Source: Ignicoccus islandicus DSM 13165 (lineage in GTDB: Archaea > Thermoproteota > Thermoprotei_A > Sulfolobales > Ignicoccaceae). Taken from it: a stretch of 32,000 nt of DNA. Each line of letters starts with the position of its first letter. Within the stretch, counting starts at the first letter, position 1. Location of the stretch: NCBI RefSeq assembly GCF_001481685.1, contig NZ_CP006867.1:240001-272000 (forward strand), written 5' to 3'. The notes below the pieces were generated by a model, which was not told where the DNA came from, searched no databases, and saw nothing but the letters and a program-made list of their open reading frames with translations. The translations under genes were made by a program, and so were the position numbers. Below are positions 863 through 18,846 of this stretch, piece after piece.

Positions 863-1348
863 CATTCACCATCCCATGGTGAATTCTCATCTCCACCTCT
901 TGTCCAAATTTAATTTTCCATTTACTTACAATTAATTCACTCATTTCCTCAACCCTAACCATTTACGAAAAGAAACAATGGTCTCCTTAAGTACCTTCAG
1001 TTTCTACTAGACTTCCCAATTGTTAATTCCATTTCAATCCAATCATTCAACGTCGTATTTTCAAAACCAAATGTAATTTACCACTCTAGAGCTTAGACCA
1101 TCAGTACAAGCCCATTTCAAGATCGATCTTTACAATGAGAAGAAGCTTAGAGGGGTTAATAAGCGATCATGGGAACTCTGATGATCATGGGGATTTCTAC
1201 TCCAGCCTACCTTATACAAGCATATTCATGCATATATTGGACAACTACTTGAGTTCAAGTTCGAAGAGGGAAGGTGTGAATGTGGAAAGACAGATGAAGG
1301 GAAAGGGTTAAAAGATGGGGAATTGGTTGTTTAAATAGGAGGGTAACG
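863..1348 (+). promoter_or_regulatory. CRISPR leader 1 (486 bp), paralogous to 11737-12222
   Basis: AT-rich and non-coding, directly abutting repeat 1. Alignable over its full length with the sequence upstream of array 2. TATA-like TTTAAATA at 1330-1337 begins 19 nt before the first repeat. A 9-bp perfect inverted repeat sits at the distal edge (864-884). Confidence 0.75.
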
Positions 1349-2246
1349 GTAGAGTCCCAATAGGGAGTGGAAAGACCCTGTAAATTCAAGGCTAACGAAA
1401 AAGTATATGCAGTCGTAGAGTCCCAATAGGGAGTGGAAAGGAGGTTGAGTTTTAAACTTGGGTGGAGTATTAAAGCGAGTAGAGTCCCAATAGGGAGTGG
1501 AAAGCTTGTTCAGCTTTACTCTACCATTGATAACGAGCCAAGCAAGTAGAGTCCCAATAGGGAGTGGAAAGTACATTTGTTCGGCTTGGGGCTGTAATCC
1601 TATATAATTTTGTAGAGTCCCAATAGGGAGTGGAAAGTCGGCCTCGAGCCCCCTCGGGGCTTTAAGAGTCCCGTTTTCCTTGTAGAGTCCCAATAGGGAG
1701 TGGAAAGCCTCATCAACCAAAGCTGATAAAATTGCAGTGTATACTAACGTAGAGTCCCAATAGGGAGTGGAAAGAAGGAAATTGTAAAGCCACCTTAATT
1801 CGTCAAGCGTAAGTTTCGGGTAGAGTCCCAATAGGGAGTGGAAAGGGTGATTCTAATTTCGGCCTCGGCAAAGGACGGTACCTAGTAGAGATCCAAGAGG
1901 GAGTGGAAAGATCGATGGCAACGGTCGTTTTCGAAGCAATGAATGGCAGAAGTAGAGATCCAATAGGGAATAGAAAGGAAACCGCATTTAACGTCAGCGT
2001 CGCGTTGCACATTATTCTGTAGAATCCCAATAGGGAATAGAAAGATCGAAGAGAAGGTGGCTGAGCTGAAAGCAAAGTACAACGTTAGTAGAGTCCCAAT
2101 AGGGAATAGAAAGCCTGGTGTCATTGACTCTGTGTTTAATAAAGTTTTAACAAGTAGAATCCCAATAGGGAATAGAAAGCAGTACTAGTCTCTAATCATA
2201 CCGTTCTCATAAATAGAACAGTAGGGATCCAAGATGGAATAGAAAA
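1349..2246 (+). CRISPR. CRISPR array 1: 14 repeats of 26 nt, 13 unique spacers of 38-45 nt
   Basis: Repeats start at 1349, 1415, 1479, 1546, 1612, 1682, 1749, 1820, 1885, 1952, 2019, 2088, 2154 and 2221. Repeats 1-8 are GTAGAGTCCCAATAGGGAGTGGAAAG. Repeats 10-13 are GTAGAATCCCAATAGGGAATAGAAAG or close variants, and repeat 14 is degenerate (GTAGGGATCCAAGATGGAATAGAAAA). There is an internal TCCC/GGGA mini-hairpin. Orientation follows from the GAAAG 3' end, the upstream leader with TATA box, and repeat decay at the far end. Confidence 0.95.
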
Positions 2247-9406: not shown

Positions 9407-10330
9407 TTGTATAAGGTACCATTAAAGACTTTCAACTGGTTCATAGAGGTTCAAACGCCTTGTTCAGCTCACATGCACGGAATAGAAGAAGTTTACTATA
9501 AAGGCAGGAGTCAGTACCAAGAGATAGTCGTAGCGAAGCTCTGCAACGTCGGGAAGGCCCTCATATTAGACGGCAAAATTCAATCGAGCGAATACGACGA
9601 ATGGATTTATCATGAGAGCTTAGTTCATCCAGTAATGATCGCTCACCCCAATCCCAAGAGAGTCGCTATACTGGGAGGTGGCGAGGGCGCTACGCTAAGG
9701 GAAGTGTTAAAGTACGATGTAGAGAAAGTTGTAATGGTTGACTTGGATAGGGAGGTGGTAGAGGTAGCTAAGAAGTTCTTGCCGGAATGGCACAAGGGCG
9801 CCTTCGATGATCCGAGGACGGAATTAGTAATAAAGGACGGTAGGAAGTTCTTGGAAGAAACGGAGCCCGGGTCATTCGACGTAATTATACTTGATCTCGT
9901 CGATCCGTTCGAAGGTGGACCAGCCGCTAAGCTGTACACAAAGGAGTTCTATCAGCTAGTAAAGAGGGCTCTCAGGGAAGGAGGTATAATGGTTACGCAA
10001 GCAACTTCAACGTCCTATACGCTCAAGATGTTCTCAGTAATATATAGAACAGTAAAGGAAGTGTTCGCTAATGCTAACGGCTACCATTCCTTCATTCAAG
10101 CCTTCGATAGCACTTGGGGCTTCGTGTGGGGTTCCGATGCGATTAATCTAAACGAACTGAAGCCGGAAGAGGTAGATTCAAGGATAAAGGCAAGGGTTAG
10201 AGGAGAGTTGAGGTACTACGACGGTTTGACTCACCTGAGCATGACCAACTTACCTAAGCATGTCAGGAAAGCTATGGAAAGTGAGACCATTGTTAGTACC
10301 GATGAGAAACCCTTCCTTCTAGAAGTTTAG
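9407..10330 (+). CDS. speE: Spermidine synthase / polyamine aminopropyltransferase
   Basis: 307 aa. YQEIVV...LDGKIQSSEYDEWIYHE...ILGGGEGATLREVLK...VDLD...DVIILDLVDP are the canonical SpeE blocks. Confidence 0.85.
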   Translation: MYKVPLKTFNWFIEVQTPCSAHMHGIEEVYYKGRSQYQEIVVAKLCNVGKALILDGKIQSSEYDEWIYHESLVHPVMIAHPNPKRVAILGGGEGATLREVLKYDVEKVVMVDLDREVVEVAKKFLPEWHKGAFDDPRTELVIKDGRKFLEETEPGSFDVIILDLVDPFEGGPAAKLYTKEFYQLVKRALREGGIMVTQATSTSYTLKMFSVIYRTVKEVFANANGYHSFIQAFDSTWGFVWGSDAINLNELKPEEVDSRIKARVRGELRYYDGLTHLSMTNLPKHVRKAMESETIVSTDEKPFLLEV

Positions 10331-11676
10331 AGGAACTTATCTTTTAGTTCTTCGACGTACCTTACGCTGTCCTTTACGTCCACGAACTTCTTCTCGACTT
10401 CCTCAACGTCTTCAGCCTTTACTTCTTCCCTTCCCTTCCTATGAGCAACTATTCTGGCTGGCTGCATGAGGTGTATCGCGTACCTCAAGCTCCTCTGTTC
10501 GCCTATTTCACCTAGCTTCTTTACTGCGTCTTCACTCAACTTCACTCCTTCCTCTTCAGCTCTTATTCTAACTATTTCTTCGATCTCGTCCCTCGTGTAA
10601 GGCCTAGTTCTAACTATTAACAATCTGTCCAACATGTCCAGAGGCATTCCGTGGGGAGCTACTTCGTCTGTACCCCTTATTTTGGCCATGCCTCTGTTAG
10701 TTGCCAATACTATTATTGGCGCGAACTCCTTTTCCATCGCTCTTGATAGGAAGCTGAATACCTCGAGATCGAGCATGTGGGCGTCATCGATGAAGAGGAC
10801 GCCGGGCACTAGCTCGCCCTTGCCTTCCTTTAACCACTCGCTCACTAACTTATCAACTTGCTTCCTCACTTCGTCGCTAACGCTCTCCGGACCGAAGCCG
10901 GCAAGTAAGCTGAGCGGGGCTTGTTGAGCAGCGTAGTAAGTGTCTAAATCGTGAAGAGTTAAGGTGTGAACGACTTCCGTTTCTTTGAACACGGGACCCT
11001 TCGGTAGCTCAGTCTCTTTTATTAGCTTTATCCCACTACTCTCCTCCTCTTTGCTTTTAGCTCTCCCTATTTTGTAGACTCTTCCGGTATCCGCGTCTAT
11101 GGCTATCACGTCTCCCCTCCTAATGCCCAATTGCAGAAGTTGGTACGCTATTTCTTCATCAGCCCTCAGCTCCTTTTCGTCGTCCTCTGTTTCGAGAGTA
11201 ATGATAGCTTCCCTAGGCACCTTAACGTAGGGGTTGTAGGGATGCCTTACCATTTTGAACTTCAAGTTCTTTACTACGCCTTCATACACCTTTCTCTTTT
11301 CCTTTATTCTTATTCCTATTGCCCTCCTCATTGCTTGCATCAAGACCTCGCTCTTCCTTGGACTACCCATTATTTCGGAACCGCCTAGAGCAACGAAAGG
11401 CGTGTCTTCGCCGAGCTCCTTCGCTAACGCTATTGCAAGCGCCGTCTTACCGGTTCCAGGCGGACCAACTATCAGAACGCCCCTACCGGCCATTCTTCCT
11501 TCTCTTACCATCTCAACGACTAGTCCTAGAGCTTCCCTTGCCTCCTCTTGACCCACTAGCCCGTCTGCTACCTTCTTCGCCCTGCCTTTCTCATCAAGAC
11601 CCAAACCTCTTATATGAGTATGGAAGCCAACCCTTACTTCGCCCTTACTCGTCTTTGGTATTTCCTCAATTACCAC
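10327..11676 (-). CDS. TIP49 / RuvB-like AAA+ ATPase
   Basis: 449 aa. HTHIRGLGLD start block, Walker A GPPGTGKTALA, inserted OB-like domain II, Walker B VLFIDDAHMLD, sensor TNRG. This is the typical RuvBL1/2 (TBP-interacting protein) architecture. Confidence 0.85.
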   Translation of the reverse strand: MVIEEIPKTSKGEVRVGFHTHIRGLGLDEKGRAKKVADGLVGQEEAREALGLVVEMVREGRMAGRGVLIVGPPGTGKTALAIALAKELGEDTPFVALGGSEIMGSPRKSEVLMQAMRRAIGIRIKEKRKVYEGVVKNLKFKMVRHPYNPYVKVPREAIITLETEDDEKELRADEEIAYQLLQLGIRRGDVIAIDADTGRVYKIGRAKSKEEESSGIKLIKETELPKGPVFKETEVVHTLTLHDLDTYYAAQQAPLSLLAGFGPESVSDEVRKQVDKLVSEWLKEGKGELVPGVLFIDDAHMLDLEVFSFLSRAMEKEFAPIIVLATNRGMAKIRGTDEVAPHGMPLDMLDRLLIVRTRPYTRDEIEEIVRIRAEEEGVKLSEDAVKKLGEIGEQRSLRYAIHLMQPARIVAHRKGREEVKAEDVEEVEKKFVDVKDSVRYVEELKDKFL

Positions 11677-11736: not shown

Positions 11737-12222
11737 CATTCACCATCCCATGGTGAATCCTCATCTCCACCTCTTGTCCAAATTAACTTTTCAATTTACT
11801 CACAATCAATTTACTCATTTCCTCAACCTTAACCATTTGAATTCAGAAATGATGGTCTCATTAAGCACCTTCAGTTTCTACTAGACTTCATAATGCTCAA
11901 TTCCATTTAAACCTAATCATTCAAAATTGCCTTTAAGAAATCAAATGCAATTTACCACTCTAGAGCTCAGACCATCAGTACATGGTCCTTTCAAGATCGA
12001 TCTTTACAATGAGAAGTTGCATTGAGGGGTTAATAAGCGATCATGGGAACTTTGATGATCATGGGGATTTCCACTCCAGCCTACCTTATACAAGCATATG
12101 CATGCATATATTGGACAACTAATTGAGTTCAAGTTCTGGAAGGGAAGGTGTGAATGTGGAAAGGAGAGCTAAGGGAAAGGGTTAAAAGATGGGGAATTGG
12201 TTGTTTAAATAGGAGGGCAACG
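11737..12222 (+). promoter_or_regulatory. CRISPR leader 2 (486 bp), paralogous to 863-1348
   Basis: Same length as leader 1 and alignable throughout, roughly 85-90% identity by eye. Same 9-bp inverted repeat at the distal edge (11738-11758). Same TTTAAATA box (12204-12211) beginning 19 nt before repeat 1. Confidence 0.75.
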
Positions 12223-12985
12223 GTAGAATCCCAATAGGGAATAGAAAGTCTCTTCCATCTCATTCACCTCATACTATACTACTCATGTGCAGTAGAATCC
12301 CAATAGGGAATAGAAAGCTAAGGAGGTCGGCGATATCGTCGAACCCCTCCTCTTGTAGAATCCCAATAGGGAATAGAAAGTTTCGTCATTGTGATGATCG
12401 AAGATGACCACTCTTATTCCTGTAGAATCCCAATAGGGAATAGAAAGAAACGATAGAGCACGTTCACTTCAGTACTTTCGTTTTCGAGTAGAATCCCAAT
12501 AGGGAATAGAAAGTAACGCAATACTCGGTTTTCTCTCGAGTTTCACGCCCGATCCGAGTGTAGAATCCCAATAGGGAATAGAAAGACCCCCGATTCTGTC
12601 CACAATCTCCCGTAAGATTTAAACATGTAGAATCCCAATAGGGAATAGAAAGCAACTTTACCGTTATAGTATCCGAGCGCTATCCTGTCCCTCGTAGAAT
12701 CCCAATAGGGAATAGAAAGAGACTCCGTATGATTCTTTAAAACGGTATAGGCTTCCATTGTAGAATCCCAATAGGGAATAGAAAGCTCGTTGAAATCGAA
12801 CTATCAAAGCACCATGCAATCATATCTAGTAGAATCCCAATAGGGAATAGAAAGACGCATCTTGGAGAAGCTGAACGTACCAATTCCGAAAGAAGTAGAA
12901 TCCCAAGATGGAATAGAAAGCCCTCCAAAACTTTGCCGTACTGGGTGGCTACGTGTTTGGTAGAGATCCATGATGAAATGGAAAC
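12223..12985 (+). CRISPR. CRISPR array 2: 12 repeats of 26 nt, 11 unique spacers of 37-46 nt
   Basis: Repeats start at 12223, 12292, 12355, 12422, 12488, 12560, 12627, 12694, 12760, 12829, 12895 and 12960. Repeats 1-10 are GTAGAATCCCAATAGGGAATAGAAAG. Repeat 11 carries two substitutions (CCAAGATGG) and repeat 12 is degenerate (GTAGAGATCCATGATGAAATGGAAAC). Confidence 0.95.
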
Positions 12986-13083
12986 TTATTTCCTTCATAG
13001 AAAATGAATGAAAAAAGTTCACTCAAGCGCGCGAAAACGAATGGATAAAATTGGTTCCGAATCGAAGCCAATTCGAAGTTCAC

Positions 13084-13114: not shown

Positions 13115-13196
13115 GGCCCCGTAGCTCAGCCAGGAGGAGCGCGGGCCTTCGGAGCCGCTAGGGTCCCCGGGCCCGCTAATCCCGGTGGGGCTGCCA
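13115..13196 (+). tRNA. tRNA-Arg(UCG)-like gene with a canonical 5' half and an aberrant 3' half (possible pseudogene or chimera)
   Basis: GGCCCCG-UA-GCUC-AGCCAGGAG-GAGC-G-CGGGC-CUUCGGA gives a textbook acceptor, D-arm, anticodon stem and loop (anticodon UCG). Downstream, the anticodon-stem 3' strand reads GCCGC (3/5 pairs). The variable/T region is 5 nt too long and lacks GTTCRAAT (it reads CCGGG-CCCGCTAAT-CCCGG). The acceptor 3' strand TGGGGCT forces G-U pairs at 1-72 and 7-66. It ends in GCCA. Confidence 0.5.
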
Positions 13197-13264: not shown

Positions 13265-13705
13265 TTATTTTAACAGTTTTCTTACTGCTTCAGTTATAGT
13301 CCATATTTCTACTATTTTAGCCCTTCTTAGGTTTTGGAAGTCTTTGTCATTAGTTATTAGGATGCAGTGTGCTTTGAGGCATGTTGCAGCGTGGTATATG
13401 TCTGCGCTCTCTGTCTCCGGGAAATATTGTTTAACCCTATTAACGTCGTCGTTGCTCGGGCGCTCTAATTTGGCCTTATCTTTTATCAGTGAGTATAGGT
13501 GTTCCGCTTGTTCGCGTATTCTGGGGAGTCTAGTAGATAGTATTTTAAACCACTTCTCATATTCTTTGAGGAGTACATCATCTACAATTAGTTCAACCTC
13601 GGGGTCTAGTAGTAATTTTAGGAGGAGTTCTGTTGTTGTCGTGTAACCTGATTTGAATGCCGATATAAAGACATTTGTGTCAATCATGTATCTTTTGTTT
13701 TGCAA
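13265..13705 (-). CDS. vapC: PIN-domain ribonuclease toxin VapC
   Basis: 146 aa. MIDTNVF (first acidic residue), later conserved acidic positions and ILITNDKDF near the C-terminus. Overlaps the upstream antitoxin gene; the probable real start is the internal ATG at 13687. Confidence 0.8.
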   Translation of the reverse strand: MQNKRYMIDTNVFISAFKSGYTTTTELLLKLLLDPEVELIVDDVLLKEYEKWFKILSTRLPRIREQAEHLYSLIKDKAKLERPSNDDVNRVKQYFPETESADIYHAATCLKAHCILITNDKDFQNLRRAKIVEIWTITEAVRKLLK

Positions 13706-13940
13706 GCTCGTTGGCCTCCTCTTCTATCTCCCTCTCTATCGCACTTATCTCCAGTCCGGCTTTTGTCACTTCTTCAGCTATATCCCTAAGCATCTTCTCG
13801 ACATCTATCTTCTTCAAAACAATAAGGTCATCCCTAAGCCCTACAACCATGAATGCATCCCCTCTCCTAAGCTTGAGTTCTTTCCTAAGCCTACTAGGAA
13901 CTACTATTCTTCCCCTATCATCTATGACCACAACACTCAA
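13680..13940 (-). CDS. vapB: AbrB/SpoVT-family antitoxin VapB
   Basis: 86 aa. IDDRGRIVVPSRLRKELKLRRGDAF is the looped-hinge-helix AbrB/MazE motif. Lies immediately upstream of and overlapping a PIN gene. Confidence 0.8.
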   Translation of the reverse strand: MSVVVIDDRGRIVVPSRLRKELKLRRGDAFMVVGLRDDLIVLKKIDVEKMLRDIAEEVTKAGLEISAIEREIEEEANELAKQKIHD

Positions 13941-14196
13941 CCCATAACACCCATATTACCCATTTTACCCACCCATTATTTTAAACCTTGCCAACCAATA
14001 TGCTTAATACAATACACTTGATCATCGATGCTACGATACTATACCCGATTCTCTTGAAAACAAACATAGATATAGGTGCACGCCATAATCAGTACACTTA
14101 ACCGATCCTTACCTCATATGTTTAGATCTCGAAGGCCCCCGTACAGTCAAACCTCATTGTATTAAGTCTTTTCTTGGGAGGCTTAATTATGTGGCC

Positions 14197-14656
14197 TTAT
14201 AGTCTCTCTGTACCTATTATTTTGAGCCATGGTATACGCTTAAAGTCTTCGTCGAACGTTGCTAGCGATTCTATGTTGCTATGCTTGCAAGTTAAGACTA
14301 TTTGCGCATCGTTTGGTGCCAGTCTATAAAACTCAATTGCCTTTACTAGCTCGTCTGGGTCTTGATAATCCCTTAGCATGGTTACTTTGAAATCTCTAAT
14401 GAAGTCGCTAACCTTTTCTATGGCTTCTTCGGGAAATCCGTGCTTGGCTATATGCTTCCTAAAAGAGTATTTTCCCTTAACACCATATTTTTACCCGTGC
14501 AATCTTGGCGCCTACGATGTAGAGCAACTCATTGTATACTATCATAGGGATAGCCATACCTCCTATAATGGCCTCCCGGAGGATTTTCTCTGAGGTATTT
14601 GTTAGTTCTGTTTCAAAGAGGAAGTGATAGATGACATTTGTATCAAGGCATATCAC
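14197..14656 (-). pseudogene. PIN-domain (VapC-like) toxin gene, frameshifted in a T5/A5 run at 14488-14492
   Basis: From GTG at 14656 (overlapping the antitoxin stop as GTGA) my translation gives VICLDTNVIYHF...VYNELLYIVGAKIARVK and then a stop. After a 1-nt shift it continues YGVKGKYSFRKHIAKHGFPEEAIEKV...RLAPNDAQIVLTCKH...TFDEDFKRIPWLKII. All four PIN acidic positions are present across the two frames. Confidence 0.65.
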
Positions 14657-14889
14657 TGGGTTTGTGCCTCCTCCTCGAGCTCCTTGAACTCCTCAACAGA
14701 TGATTTCCCGAGAACACCTCTGTACCTTTTGATTAGTTCATCTATGTCCTCTTCCACTATCACCTTGTACTCTTTGCCCTCCTCAAGGTTGACGCTATTC
14801 AGCGGTTTTAGCACGCCCTTCTCATACTTCACTCTAACAACCTTGGACAAATCTTCCGCACCCATATCAAATGTGGCTCCATTAACCAA
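14653..14889 (-). CDS. DUF104 (AF2212-like) putative antitoxin
   Basis: 78 aa. VRVKYEKGVLKPLNSVNLEEGKEYKVIV matches the YENGVLKPLE...L.EG core of the DUF104 family, which commonly pairs with archaeal PIN toxins. There is a 4-nt stop/start overlap with the PIN gene. Confidence 0.7.
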   Translation of the reverse strand: MVNGATFDMGAEDLSKVVRVKYEKGVLKPLNSVNLEEGKEYKVIVEEDIDELIKRYRGVLGKSSVEEFKELEEEAQTQ

Positions 14890-15009
14890 TTAGCCTTTCC
14901 CCATACCGGGTGTTTCCAAATTATCAGCAATGGTATTCGCGGTGATAAGCGTTCCTAAAGAGCGTTTCCAATTCATGGTTTCACTTGGAAACATGGTTAA
15001 TATGTTATC

Positions 15010-15057
15010 GGCCTTCGGAACTAATGGTCGCAAGTTCGAGTTCCGGCGGGTCAGCCA
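15010..15057 (+). other. Orphan, decayed tRNA 3'-half-like sequence (att-like partial repeat of 13144-13196)
   Basis: GG-CCTTCGGA-ACTAA-TGGTC-GCAAG-TTCGAGT-TCCGG-CGGGTCA-G-CCA has exact tRNA register (loop 7, stem 5, variable 5, T-stem 5, T-loop 7, T-stem 5, acceptor 7, discriminator, CCA) and a GTTCGAGT T-loop. The T-stem strands do not pair and no 5' half lies upstream. It shares GGCCTTCGGA and CCGG-Y-GGG...GCCAC with the tRNA-like gene. Confidence 0.3.
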
Positions 15058-15066
15058 CCTTCGTAT

Positions 15067-15511
15067 TCACGGGATTACCTTGAGCCATGGAACACGCTTG
15101 AAGTCTTCGTCGAACGTAAGGATAGTATCTATATCGTAGTGCTTGCAAGTTAAAGCTATGATGGCGTCGCTTGGCAACAATCTAAACTCCGTTAGAACTT
15201 TATATAGCTCGTGCTCGGTGTACATGCTTGGTATTAGCCCTATTATCTAATCTCTTAAATAATTCTCTAACAGCGTTCACTACTTCCTCGGGGTACCCAT
15301 GTTTCTTTACCCATTTCTTGGCTAAGTATGCTCCCTTTACCCCGTGTATGTGTTCTAGGTAACGTCTCGTTGACGCATATATTATCTCGTTATGAACCAT
15401 CATGTCAATGACATAATCACCGGGATTCTCTTCTAGTATGGTTAACGCTTCCTCTGTTCTAGGTGTTTTATGGAGGATATAATATAGTACGTTAGTGTCC
15501 ACGAAAATCAC
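15067..15511 (-). pseudogene. PIN-domain (VapC-like) toxin gene, frameshifted near 15238-15250
   Basis: ORF 15200-15511 gives VIFVDTNVLYYIL...HNEIIYAS...HGYPEEVVNAVRELFKRLDN and then reads out of frame. A different frame continues IGLIPSMYTEHELYKVLTEFRLLPSDAIIALTCKH...TFDEDFKRVPWLKVIP to the stop at 15067-15069. Paralogous to 14197-14656. Confidence 0.65.
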
Positions 15512-16213: not shown

Positions 16214-17308
16214 TCAATAAGCCCCGTGCTTCTTGGCCCACTCTTCATACATCTTGACGGTCTCGGGCTTAACGCTAGGCTTCCTCCTCTTTAAGGCAGC
16301 CTTCACGTCTTCCATAGTTATAGGCCTCGGATCCCCTATGCCACCGGTTTCCTTGAAGAGCTCCCTCACGGTTATCATATGGGCGTCTCTCAAGATTGCG
16401 ACTATGTCTGCGGATGAATAGCCTTCGGTCAGCCTGACCAGCTCCTCAACGTCTATTCCGTTGTGGTTGAGCCTAGCTAAGGTTTTCTCTATTAAACGTC
16501 TTCTAGCCTCTTCATCGGGGAGAGGAATATATATTCTCTTTTCGAACCTCCTTATGAAGCCTTCGTCCAGTTTCCAAGGCTTGTTGGTAGCGGCGATAAC
16601 GTAAACGAAATACCTCTCCCCCTTGTCCTGAAGGCCATCCATCTCTTTCAAGAACTGGTTCCTTGCTCTGACTTCACCACCGACCTCGTTGGAGTACGTG
16701 CCCAGAAGGGAGTCGACCTCGTCAATGAATATTACCACGGGCCTGCCTTCCTTGGCTATTTCCCTAGCCTTCTTGAATATCTTTGCCACGTTCTTCTCTG
16801 CTTCGCCCAGCCACTTGCTCATAATTGTGGCAGCGTCAACGTAAATGAATTCTCCGTCTATCTCAGACGCTATAGCAGCAGCTAGCATGGTCTTTCCGCA
16901 TCCCGGAGGTCCGAAGAGGAGTATTCCCCTAGGCCATCCCAAGGGGAACAAGTCTGGCCTTTTAGTCGGAAATATTATCGCTTCTTCTATGGCCCTCTTC
17001 GCTTCCTCCAGACCTACTACGTCTTCCCACTTCACCTTGGGCTTGCTCTGGAGCTCTATTTCCTCTTCCTCCCCTCCTATGGGTTCTGGCATCATATCGC
17101 TTTGAAGCAGCTTTATCTTGTTATTTATATGGTCTAGATACTCTAAGTATACGTTCTTTAATGGGTGATCTGGTTCGAGCTCGAGGGCCTTCTTGATCAT
17201 ATTAGCAGCTATCTTGTAATTCTTTAAAGCTTCGTCTTTCTTACCGTTCTTTTCTAGTTGAAACGCCTTGTGGAGGTAACTGTGGGCCACTTGTTCAAGT
17301 TTCCCCAC
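16214..17308 (-). CDS. cdvC: CdvC / Vps4-like AAA+ ATPase with N-terminal MIT domain
   Basis: 364 aa. MIT-like helices (KAFQLEKNGKKDEALKNYKIAANMIKKALE), Walker A GPPGCGKT, Walker B VIFIDEVDS, second region of homology ATNKPW..D.GFIRRF. Last gene of a cdvA-cdvB-cdvC arrangement. Confidence 0.9.
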   Translation of the reverse strand: MGKLEQVAHSYLHKAFQLEKNGKKDEALKNYKIAANMIKKALELEPDHPLKNVYLEYLDHINNKIKLLQSDMMPEPIGGEEEEIELQSKPKVKWEDVVGLEEAKRAIEEAIIFPTKRPDLFPLGWPRGILLFGPPGCGKTMLAAAIASEIDGEFIYVDAATIMSKWLGEAEKNVAKIFKKAREIAKEGRPVVIFIDEVDSLLGTYSNEVGGEVRARNQFLKEMDGLQDKGERYFVYVIAATNKPWKLDEGFIRRFEKRIYIPLPDEEARRRLIEKTLARLNHNGIDVEELVRLTEGYSSADIVAILRDAHMITVRELFKETGGIGDPRPITMEDVKAALKRRKPSVKPETVKMYEEWAKKHGAY

Positions 17309-17312
17309 CTTT

Positions 17313-18116
17313 TCATCCCCTCTTCCTTATCGCTATCTTCCCTTCCTTCTCTAGCCTCTCCAGAGCCTTCCTAACCTCAGCCTCTGTGATACCTAGATGA
17401 GACGCGATCTTCTTAACGGAGAGCTTGTGTGCCCTACCGTATTGGTGATAGATCCTAATTACTTCGTAAACTTTCTCTACTACCTCATCGAATGAGTACT
17501 TCCTTATGGCACCGTCCGCCAACGCTACCGGTTGCGTTGATGGGGTAGACCAGTACGCGTTATTGTAAGCGTCGTTTAATTCCTTCTCTAATCCGCTATC
17601 GATAGGCTTCAATAGTTCGGTGGAGTCTATCATTACCTCTTTGAGAGCTTGTGCATTGGGAGTCGGCATATCGAGACCCTTCAACTCTATGAGTACGTTC
17701 TCAATATTGGACTTTGCCCTTTCAGCATACGGCAATAGCGCCCCTTCCAGTATAGCCTTCCTGTCTTCCAGAACCTCGTAGATCCTCTGAAGAGTGGCCA
17801 CTGCGTTTGCGTGGCTGGTTTCCTTTTCCATCTTCCTTAGTTCCATTTCAAGTAAGTTCTTCGTGGTCTTTAGATCCCTTACCTTCTTGCTTAGGTCCTT
17901 TATTTCTATTTCGAGCGCCCTAGCCTTCTCCTCTTCCTTTTCCCTAAGCGCCCTTAGGTACTCCTCTTTCCTCTCCTCTTTCAGTCTCTCTAATTCAAAT
18001 ATCTCTTCGTCTAGCTTCCTCACCAGTTCGTTTAGTTTTATTAACCTATCAATGTAAACGTGCTTGAGCCTCCTCCCTTGCTTCTTCTTTTTCCGAAAGA
18101 AAAGCCATATTACCAT
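17313..18116 (-). CDS. cdvB: CdvB, ESCRT-III (Snf7-like) protein with C-terminal winged-helix domain
   Basis: 267 aa. Long charged helical hairpin region followed by a wH-like C-terminus (LSVKKIASHLGITEAEVRKALERLEKEGKIAIRK). Positioned between cdvA and cdvC as in Sulfolobus. Confidence 0.75.
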   Translation of the reverse strand: MVIWLFFRKKKKQGRRLKHVYIDRLIKLNELVRKLDEEIFELERLKEERKEEYLRALREKEEEKARALEIEIKDLSKKVRDLKTTKNLLEMELRKMEKETSHANAVATLQRIYEVLEDRKAILEGALLPYAERAKSNIENVLIELKGLDMPTPNAQALKEVMIDSTELLKPIDSGLEKELNDAYNNAYWSTPSTQPVALADGAIRKYSFDEVVEKVYEVIRIYHQYGRAHKLSVKKIASHLGITEAEVRKALERLEKEGKIAIRKRG

Positions 18117-18165
18117 AGTAGCGCACCTCTTCGGAGTTTTCCGCGCTTATTCGAAAACGATGGGC

Positions 18166-18846
18166 TTAGTCGGACAAGTCTAGCATTATCGGTGGTACGC
18201 TAGGTTGGCTCACTTGGTGGTGAACGTTTTGAACGCCTTCGCTCTCCTCAGTGGGCTTCTCGAGCTTCTCTAACTTCTCTATCCACTCCTTAACGCTCTT
18301 CTTCTCCTCGTAAGCCATTTCCTTCTGATGCCTTATTGCGCTAGCAGCTTGCTGATACCTTTTGTCGCTAATCTCTCCAGCCATGTAGCTCATCTGGAGG
18401 TTTATCAAGGCCCTATCCATTTCGAGTATCTGGTCCTCTAACTCCCCTATCCTCTCCCTTAGCATCTTCTTTACGTCGCCTAGCTTACCCTTCAAGCTCT
18501 GTAGTTGTTGTTCCATTTTCTTCTTCATCTCAATTACTATGTCCTTGTTAACTTCGCTGTTACTCATCATGGTTTCTAGGGCCTTTATCCTCCTTATCGC
18601 TGTATCCATTTTCCTGTATATGCTCTTAGCCTCGGCCATCCATTCAGGAAGCACAACTACTTCTTCGCCCTTCTTAGAGAGCCTCTCAGAAGGTATTCTA
18701 GTGAACTTGTTACCTCCAACTGCTAACTCTACTGCCTCCACTTCTCCATCCACGTTGGAGTAAACGCTTACTAAGGTTCCAACTATCCTACCGAACGGGT
18801 CCTTTACGGGTTCACCGACGTACTTCTCTACGAGAGTTATCTCCAT
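18166..18846 (-). CDS. cdvA: CdvA, PRC-barrel plus coiled-coil cell-division protein
   Basis: 226 aa. N-terminal PRC-barrel-like segment (YVGEPVKDPFGRIVGTLVSVYSNVDGEVEAVEL), central coiled coil, and a short proline-containing C-terminal tail (PSVPPIMLDLSD) where the ESCRT-III-binding peptide is expected. Confidence 0.8.
   Translation of the reverse strand: MEITLVEKYVGEPVKDPFGRIVGTLVSVYSNVDGEVEAVELAVGGNKFTRIPSERLSKKGEEVVVLPEWMAEAKSIYRKMDTAIRRIKALETMMSNSEVNKDIVIEMKKKMEQQLQSLKGKLGDVKKMLRERIGELEDQILEMDRALINLQMSYMAGEISDKRYQQAASAIRHQKEMAYEEKKSVKEWIEKLEKLEKPTEESEGVQNVHHQVSQPSVPPIMLDLSD

Follow-up and report, generated by a model that had tools for sequence, protein, structure and literature searches.

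A two-type CRISPR array in Ignicoccus islandicus with a mosaic switch zone between its repeat variants

Array 1 of Ignicoccus islandicus DSM 13165 is an ordinary CRISPR locus of a known kind and a new example in which two repeat types meet in a mosaic switch zone. It is one of two arrays in the window, i.e., the whole stretch of 32,000 nucleotides that was analysed (GC content, 46.3%). From the leader onwards, array 1 contains eight type-A repeats, two odd repeats (R9 and R10), three type-B or near-B repeats (R11–R13) and a degenerate terminal repeat (R14). The mosaic states of R9 and R10, failures of the four-gamete test, the number of substitutions under a strict copy model and the order of R12 together indicate that the switch between the types needs either several exact reversals or an exchange between repeat variants, by recombination or gene conversion. 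Our preferred explanation, proposed tentatively and with somewhat less than even confidence, is that repeat 1 was rewritten by recombination or gene conversion among non-identical repeats over a few acquisitions.

Array 1 (+ strand, 1349–2246) comprises 14 repeats of 26 nt and 13 spacers, and array 2 (+ strand, 12223–12985) comprises 12 repeats and 11 spacers with a paralogous 486-bp leader in front (Table 1). Both arrays showed regular, near-identical 26-nt direct repeats, unique spacers of similar length, a leader before the first repeat and degenerate repeats at the distal end, as is characteristic of CRISPR arrays. Repeat matches within three mismatches numbered 22 in the window, compared with 0 expected from 100 shuffles. 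The spacers of both arrays (37–46 nt) were all unique, with no similarity between the arrays and no match elsewhere in the window. The orientation of the arrays was derived from the homologous 486-bp leaders, the degenerate repeats at the far end and the repeats ending in GAAAG. Tandem Repeats Finder reported nothing in the window, as expected for repeats interrupted by spacers, and a comparison with Rfam yielded no relevant family. Spacer 5 of array 1 (1638–1681) had a GC content of 61%, compared with 33%–57% in all other spacers. Read in the sense in which the array is transcribed, this spacer includes a terminator-like hairpin with a T run behind it (CGGGGCTTTAAGAGTCCCG TTTTCC).

Table 1. 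Repeats, leaders and leader elements of the two CRISPR arrays (positions within the window).
Feature	Position	Strand	Sequence or description
Array 1 R1–R8	1349, 1415, 1479, 1546, 1612, 1682, 1749, 1820	+	GTAGAGTCCCAATAGGGAGTGGAAAG, 8 exact copies
Type-A block, R1–R8 with spacers S1–S7	1349..1845	+	Eight exact copies
Array 1 R9, mosaic repeat	1885..1910	+	GTAGAGATCCAAGAGGGAGTGGAAAG; old-type 5′ part GTAGAGATCCAAG and type-A 3′ end (G19, G21)
Array 1 R10, mosaic repeat	1952..1977	+	GTAGAGATCCAATAGGGAATAGAAAG; old-type 5′ part GTAGAGATCCA and type-B remainder
Array 1 distal type-B block	2019..2179	+	R11 (B), R12 (B with G6), R13 (B), spacers S11–S12
Array 1 R11 and R13	2019 and 2154	+	GTAGAATCCCAATAGGGAATAGAAAG, array-2 consensus, type B
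Array 1 R12	2088	+	Type B except G6
Array 1 R14, degenerate terminal repeat	2221..2246	+	GTAGGGATCCAAGATGGAATAGAAAA
Array 2 R1–R10	12223..12854	+	All type B
Array 2 old end	12895..12985	+	R11, GTAGAATCCCAAGATGGAATAGAAAG; terminal R12, GTAGAGATCCATGATGAAATGGAAAC
Leader of array 1	863..1348	+	87.4% identity over 486 columns to the stretch before array 2
Leader of array 2, paralogue of leader 1	11737..12222	+	From pairwise comparison of the leaders
Leader-proximal tract	1297..1343	+	47 nt shared exactly by the two leaders; no other 30-mer is repeated in the window
TATA-like box in the 47-nt tract	1330–1337	+	TTTAAATA, read directly from the sequence

Three positions, 6, 19 and 21, distinguish type A from type B. 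The first-pass annotation had described array 1 as a hybrid of two repeat types, with one form in the eight leader-proximal repeats, the array-2 consensus or intermediates in the distal repeats and differences at these three positions, and our comparison confirmed this description together with all of its coordinates and repeat sequences for array 1; R11 and R13 equal the array-2 consensus. It had also reported G6 as the sole change of R12 from type B and an ATCC variant common to R9 and R10, which differ in their 3′ parts. Both observations were borne out, the stretch common to R9 and R10 being GAGATCC. Two points had been missed: the G13 of R9, and the recurrence of the odd states of R9 and R10 in the terminal repeats of both arrays.

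Ion S5 assemblies of the same clonal strain served as an independent check. They derive from the mock-community runs ERR9765777 and ERR9765779, synthetic communities (PMC9652401) containing I. islandicus DSM 13165 (GC content, 44.9%) and I. hospitalis (56.5%), and their contigs are 99.99% identical to the window. From position 2020 onwards, the window matched contigs L001 and L002 (one mismatch and one gap, respectively), and R11–R14 were exactly reproduced, among them R12 with its G6 and the degenerate R14. Arrays are hard to assemble, and these contigs start at 2020, beyond R1–R10, so that the variant repeats could in principle be sequencing or assembly errors in a repetitive region. However, R11–R14 recurred exactly in independent assemblies, eight identical type-A repeats with unique spacers cannot stem from random error, and the variants are substitutions at fixed positions rather than homopolymer errors. 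An artefact is accordingly very improbable. The break of the contigs at R11 was also considered as strain variation, which was rejected because the contigs come from the same clonal strain.

The character table showed that R10 differs from type B at positions 6, 7 and 8, its last 18 nt being equal to type B, and that R9 differs from type A at positions 7, 8 and 13. Both repeats carry A7 and T8, and R9 alone carries G13; these states are absent from types A and B. The odd states of R9 and R10 (G6, A7, T8 and G13) are those of the terminal repeats, R14 of array 1 (GTAGGGATCCAAGATGG...) and R12 of array 2 (GTAGAGATCCATGATG...). The 11-mer 5′ module GTAGAGATCCA occurred exactly three times in the 32 kb, in R9, R10 and R12 of array 2, the first 11 nt of the last being exactly those of the other two. 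Under random substitution, the chance that the states of R9 and R10 hit those of the terminal repeats was 1.4e-4 for three states and 4e-6 for four. Within array 1, the four-gamete test failed for positions 7/8 versus 19/21 and for position 13 versus 19/21. Since all four character combinations are present at these sites, no single-mutation tree fits without reversal or recombination. Incompatible site pairs numbered 6 in array 1 and 13 across both arrays. Array 1 thus combines character incompatibility with mosaic repeats that mix modules of the types, as expected of a recombinant or chimeric array.

The neighbouring pairs R11/R10, R10/R9 and R9/R8 differed at exactly three positions each, although insertion of the intervening spacer must have left the two members of each pair identical. 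After the switch, no change was found across the seven further units of array 1, and none across nine units of array 2. Such three-site jumps from R11 to R8, followed by none in later units, favour the recombination reading, although clustered changes are no proof in themselves, since acquisitions carry no time scale. R12, with G6 only, is the sole true intermediate and sits between two pure B repeats, i.e., out of order. Of the features expected of a simple stepwise replacement, array 1 has the uninterrupted variant block abutting the leader (R1–R8); ordered boundary intermediates on the direct A/B mutational path were not found in it among R9, R10 and R12.

A strict copy model, in which repeat 1 is the template for each new repeat and a mutation is either inherited by later copies or private, was evaluated by a dynamic-programming count. 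From R13 to R1 it required at least nine substitutions, compared with three on the direct B-to-A path. This result bears on the view that array 1 is an in-place record of point mutations, fixed successively in repeat 1 of a type-B array and forming a linear B-to-A series. Several observations agree with that view: the A block lies next to the leader, with the B block on the distal side, type B is the consensus of the sister array, R12 is a genuine one-step G6 intermediate, the adjacent R9 and R10 share A7/T8 as a single inherited change would produce, and repeat mutations are known to propagate (PMC4869251). The series would nevertheless need exact reversals, with positions 7–8 going from TC to AT and back and position 13 from T to G and back, and G6 would have to be gained, lost and regained, which raises the total to at least nine substitutions. 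Furthermore, the old terminal repeats show exactly the states of this excursion (P about 1e-4 to 4e-6), the four-gamete incompatibilities are left standing, and G6 is not a new mutation judging by the oldest repeats. We therefore regard a point-mutation record as unlikely. The first-pass annotation had read array 1 as a stepwise fossil record, which was not supported in view of the terminal-repeat states in R9 and R10, the four-gamete failures, the substitution count and the misplaced R12. Its proposal that point mutations became fixed in the first repeat of a type-B array was likewise not supported, as R9 and R10 are not B–A intermediates and G6 looks old. Overall, we find partial support for its interpretation.

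The age of G6 was judged from the three oldest repeats, which served as a rough outgroup for polarity. They carried G6 in two of three, A19 in three of three and A21 in two of three cases, so that G6 looks ancestral rather than new, and the A6 of type B and the G19 of type A appear to be derived states. In type A, only G19, and perhaps also G21, would be clearly new. On this polarity, types A and B are most readily understood as sisters, each derived from an older G6/A19 repeat, and not as parent and child. The terminal repeats of the arrays, with 2–9 changes relative to type B, look like remnants of this older repeat form rather than products of random decay, and the same states recur in mid-array in R9 and R10.

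We suggest that array 1 grew at the leader end, with each acquisition duplicating repeat 1. Spacer integration duplicates the leader-adjacent repeat (PMC4872114), and leader-end propagation of repeat mutations is likewise known (PMC4869251). Applied to the block, this established mechanism implies that, once repeat 1 was of type A, all later units (at least seven acquisitions) became type A as well. The first-pass annotation had inferred propagation through at least eight acquisitions; the unbroken A block fits the copying of repeat 1, but eight repeats prove only seven duplications of an A-type first repeat, and R8 and R9 must have been identical when spacer 8 entered. Its further suggestion that the locus stayed adaptation-competent after its repeat diverged is plausible, given that the leader–repeat junction is almost unchanged between the arrays.

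Repeat 1 itself would not have changed by successive point mutations in a type-B repeat. R10 and then R9 could have been laid down during the switch as patchworks, in which the older-form 5′ module GTAGAGATCCA was combined with B-type or A-type 3′ ends, while the older repeat form would have persisted in the terminal repeats of both arrays. The donor repeats might have stood in arrays with a homologous leader, or in units since deleted from array 1, and repeat 1 was presumably rewritten more than once before the A form settled. A candidate donor for repeat 1 would be an array with A-type, R9/R10-type or GAGATCCA-type repeats. Recombination between homologous CRISPR arrays has been documented (Kupczok, Landan and Dagan 2015, PMC4524480). 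In array 1, this explanation is supported by the unbroken block of eight A repeats beside the leader with its conserved leader–repeat junction, by the confinement of the 11-mer to R9, R10 and R12 of array 2, by the 6 and 13 incompatible site pairs, by the nine versus three substitutions and by the low probability (1.4e-4 to 4e-6) of the coincidence between R9/R10 and the terminal states. Against it, no A-type or GATCC-type donor array was found in the collections scanned, and the two arrays have no spacers in common as marks of exchange. In addition, a type-B conversion tract copied from leader plus repeat 1 would also carry A6, which type A lacks; this excludes array 2 in its present form as the source of the last step.

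The leaders provided a further view of the relationship between the arrays. Their homology begins at 863 and 11737, respectively, and extends up to the first repeat. At the leader–repeat junction, 47 identical nt (1297–1343) are followed by a single difference at 1344. The length of this identical run is not in itself significant (P = 0.08), which counts against the recombination reading, and the tract beside repeat 1 was rejected as proof of gene conversion on this ground. The tract includes the TATA-like TTTAAATA, a putative promoter element by its agreement with the archaeal TATA consensus. Differences between the leaders cluster in short, fully divergent blocks of 6–7 nt (1290–1296 vs. 12164–12170 and 965–970 vs. 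11839–11844). These blocks are set in near-identical sequence and resemble small replacements more than scattered point mutations.

The short-read contigs of the clonal strain, L001 and L002, end inside R11 (2020) and 15 nt into leader 2 (11752). No repeated 30-mer within the window accounts for these breaks, and we take the assemblies to have been made with k = 31. On this premise, additional copies of the leader and of similarly flanked type-B repeats may exist in the genome, and the two breaks hint weakly at such copies as donors under the recombination reading.

A crossover inside R10 ranked second, behind the rewriting of repeat 1. It would have joined an array of an A lineage (leader 1, R1–R9, S1–S9 and an old GATCC-type repeat) to a type-B remnant (S10–S13, R11–R14). 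No switch would then have taken place in situ, and R10, R9 and type A would represent the A lineage's own history from the old form. The repeats indeed form a nearly linear series, in which the old form with T13 and G15 gives R10, the addition of G19 and G21 gives R9, and T7 and C8 lead to type A; the exception is one private change at position 13 in R9. A crossover also accounts for old-type 5′ modules in mid-array, and the preserved unit spacing of 65–71 nt across the junction is what a crossover within a repeat predicts. Recombination from array to array is, as noted, documented (PMC4524480), and the first-pass annotation had itself named this scenario as one that would refute its model. 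However, the crossover would require positions 7, 8, 13 and 15 to have changed in parallel in both lineages, A and B, or concerted evolution in addition. Neither the partner array nor the reciprocal product was seen, and no mosaic boundary is visible in leader 1, which is simply a paralogue of leader 2. Taken together, we consider a crossover possible but doubtful.

The predicted RNA structures of the repeats differ along the same lines. Types A and B and R12 of array 1 are predicted to form the hairpin U7C8C9C10/G15G16G17A18 with an AAUA loop at −5.2 to −6.3 kcal/mol (type A, −6.3 kcal/mol). In the terminal repeat form (R14 of array 1), the register is shifted by one base, to U8C9C10A11/U15G16G17A18. 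R9, R10 and R11 of array 2 appear half-converted, with weak predicted hairpins of −1.4 to −2.9 kcal/mol (R9, −2.9 kcal/mol; R10, −1.7 kcal/mol). Positions 6 and 19 were considered as a compensatory pair, as they are opposed in an extended stem; the pair is A.A in type B or G.G in type A, i.e., not Watson–Crick covariation, and the idea was rejected.

In related archaeal systems, the last 8 nt of the repeat become the 5′ tag of the crRNA (PMC3491384). Positions 19 and 21 lie within the last 8 nt, and thus the presumed tag changes from AUAGAAAG in type B to GUGGAAAG in type A. Type A would accordingly alter bases −8 and −6 of the presumed 8-nt crRNA 5′ handle while keeping the hairpin. At the 3′ end, GAAAG is kept, and the bases before it are ATA (B) or GTG (A), against the motif ATTGAAA(N) defined for Cas6-type 3′ ends in PMC4869251. 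Type A is probably still usable by the same Cas6 and Cas1–Cas2. A broader reading would join these structural features to the recombination reading. The repeats of this lineage would switch between an older (UCCA-AGA-UGGA) and a newer (UCCC-AAUA-GGGA) hairpin register, and arrays with a shared leader would swap modules by gene conversion at repeat 1, a form of concerted evolution that would leave R9, R10 and R11 of array 2 half-converted. The handle GUGGAAAG would then define a functionally distinct crRNA class within one genome, with differing Cas6 efficiency or effector loading. We regard this combination as speculative and rather improbable.

The propagation of variants, degenerate terminal repeats and array recombination are all already described, and CRISPRDetect handles leader-end repeat variants via its 'alternative repeat' and 'dynamic adaption' options (PMC4869251). 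Array 1 resembles the propagation of a repeat mutation from the leader end (PMC4869251) in its contiguous variant block at the leader, its older form at the distal end and the duplication of the first repeat, but its boundary contains two mosaics and one out-of-order single-step variant. With recombination between arrays (PMC4524480) it shares a reticulate signal, incompatible characters and modules common to arrays with homologous leaders; in that work, however, the signal lay in spacer order across strains, whereas here it lies in repeat-internal characters within one genome and without common spacers. R14 of array 1 and R11 and R12 of array 2 are typical mutated leader-distal repeats (PMC12839519; PMC4869251). 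In contrast to the degenerate repeats described there, the terminal repeats of both arrays share A7, T8, G13 and T15 with the perfect hairpin UCCA-AGA-UGGA. Similarly, the 26-nt repeat, GAAAG end, short hairpin and long conserved leader recall the Cas6-processed repeats of Nanoarchaeum equitans (8-nt tag ATTGAAAG; PMC3491384), whereas the presumed tags AUAGAAAG and GUGGAAAG differ from AUUGAAAG, and no cas gene lies within the 32 kb.

If the mosaic reading is true, repeats within one genome change also by the exchange of segments between arrays, and not only by mutation of the first repeat. This would bear on the compatibility of repeat families with a shared Cas6 and Cas1–Cas2, and on treating repeat variants as time markers when array history is reconstructed. 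The two natural repeat variants, with their differing presumed 5′ handles, could also serve as material for testing the tolerance of processing and integration in a hyperthermophilic crenarchaeon.

Searches for relatives and donors returned few sequences. A degenerate repeat pattern had no match in genome, metagenome or viral contig collections, from which the source genome itself is apparently absent, and a looser pattern gave four single chance matches and no arrays in metagenome contigs. Exact-protein look-ups of flanking genes returned only Logan contigs of the mock-community runs, i.e., the same clonal strain (PMC9652401). Syntenic sites located with the TIP49 query in I. pacificus and a Desulfurococcales MAG contained no arrays, and array-derived open reading frames used as protein baits and in exact look-ups revealed no further ones. 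For protospacers, scans of viral contigs with the newest spacers and whole-array BLAST searches against phage and plasmid collections gave only chance-level matches to bacterial phages (E 0.3–0.9). No cas family was detected among the 30 open reading frames of the 32-kb window scanned against Pfam. In the relative I. hospitalis, nine CRISPR loci and 37 cas genes are reported to be dispersed over the genome (PMC3149612), which makes arrays remote from cas genes plausible in Ignicoccus.

Genes between and around the arrays are of the housekeeping kind, including those for an FKBP isomerase, ABC ATPases, spermidine synthase, a TIP49-like ATPase, CdvA/Vps4 and dUTPase, among others. Array 1 lies between an upstream gene and the FKBP gene. 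The TIP49/RuvBL-like AAA+ ATPase (10327–11676, − strand; Pfam TIP49, E = 3e-133) has its start 60 nt away from that of leader 2, and its best matches are in I. pacificus (85% amino acid identity) and a Desulfurococcales MAG (78%). In the trailer of array 2 (13006–13056, + strand), a weak match to the C/D-box sRNA sR16 (17.6 bits vs. a gathering score of 70, E = 0.39) is probably due to chance. Just beyond array 2, a tRNA-like sequence (GCCCCGTAGCTCAGCCAGG...GGTGGGGCTGCCA; 13118–13195, + strand) received no call from ARAGORN, with introns also allowed, or from Rfam. Within it, at exactly 13127, one contig of the clonal strain ends, suggesting that this sequence is repeated elsewhere in the genome; it might be an incomplete tRNA copy marking an integration site. 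Directly after it lies a cluster of small PIN-domain genes (13265–15511) with AbrB/MraZ-like and AF2212-like partners in toxin–antitoxin-like pairs, in which a 111-nt stretch is repeated at 73% identity (14216–14326 and 15074–15184). This cluster may be a toxin–antitoxin island or the remnant of an integrated element. Further downstream, a Cdv cell-division cluster (16214–18846, − strand) encodes CdvA (18166–18846) and a Vps4/CdvC AAA ATPase (16214–17308), and an unassigned gene for a 267-aa protein within it (17313–18116, − strand) occupies the position expected of an ESCRT-III-like gene.
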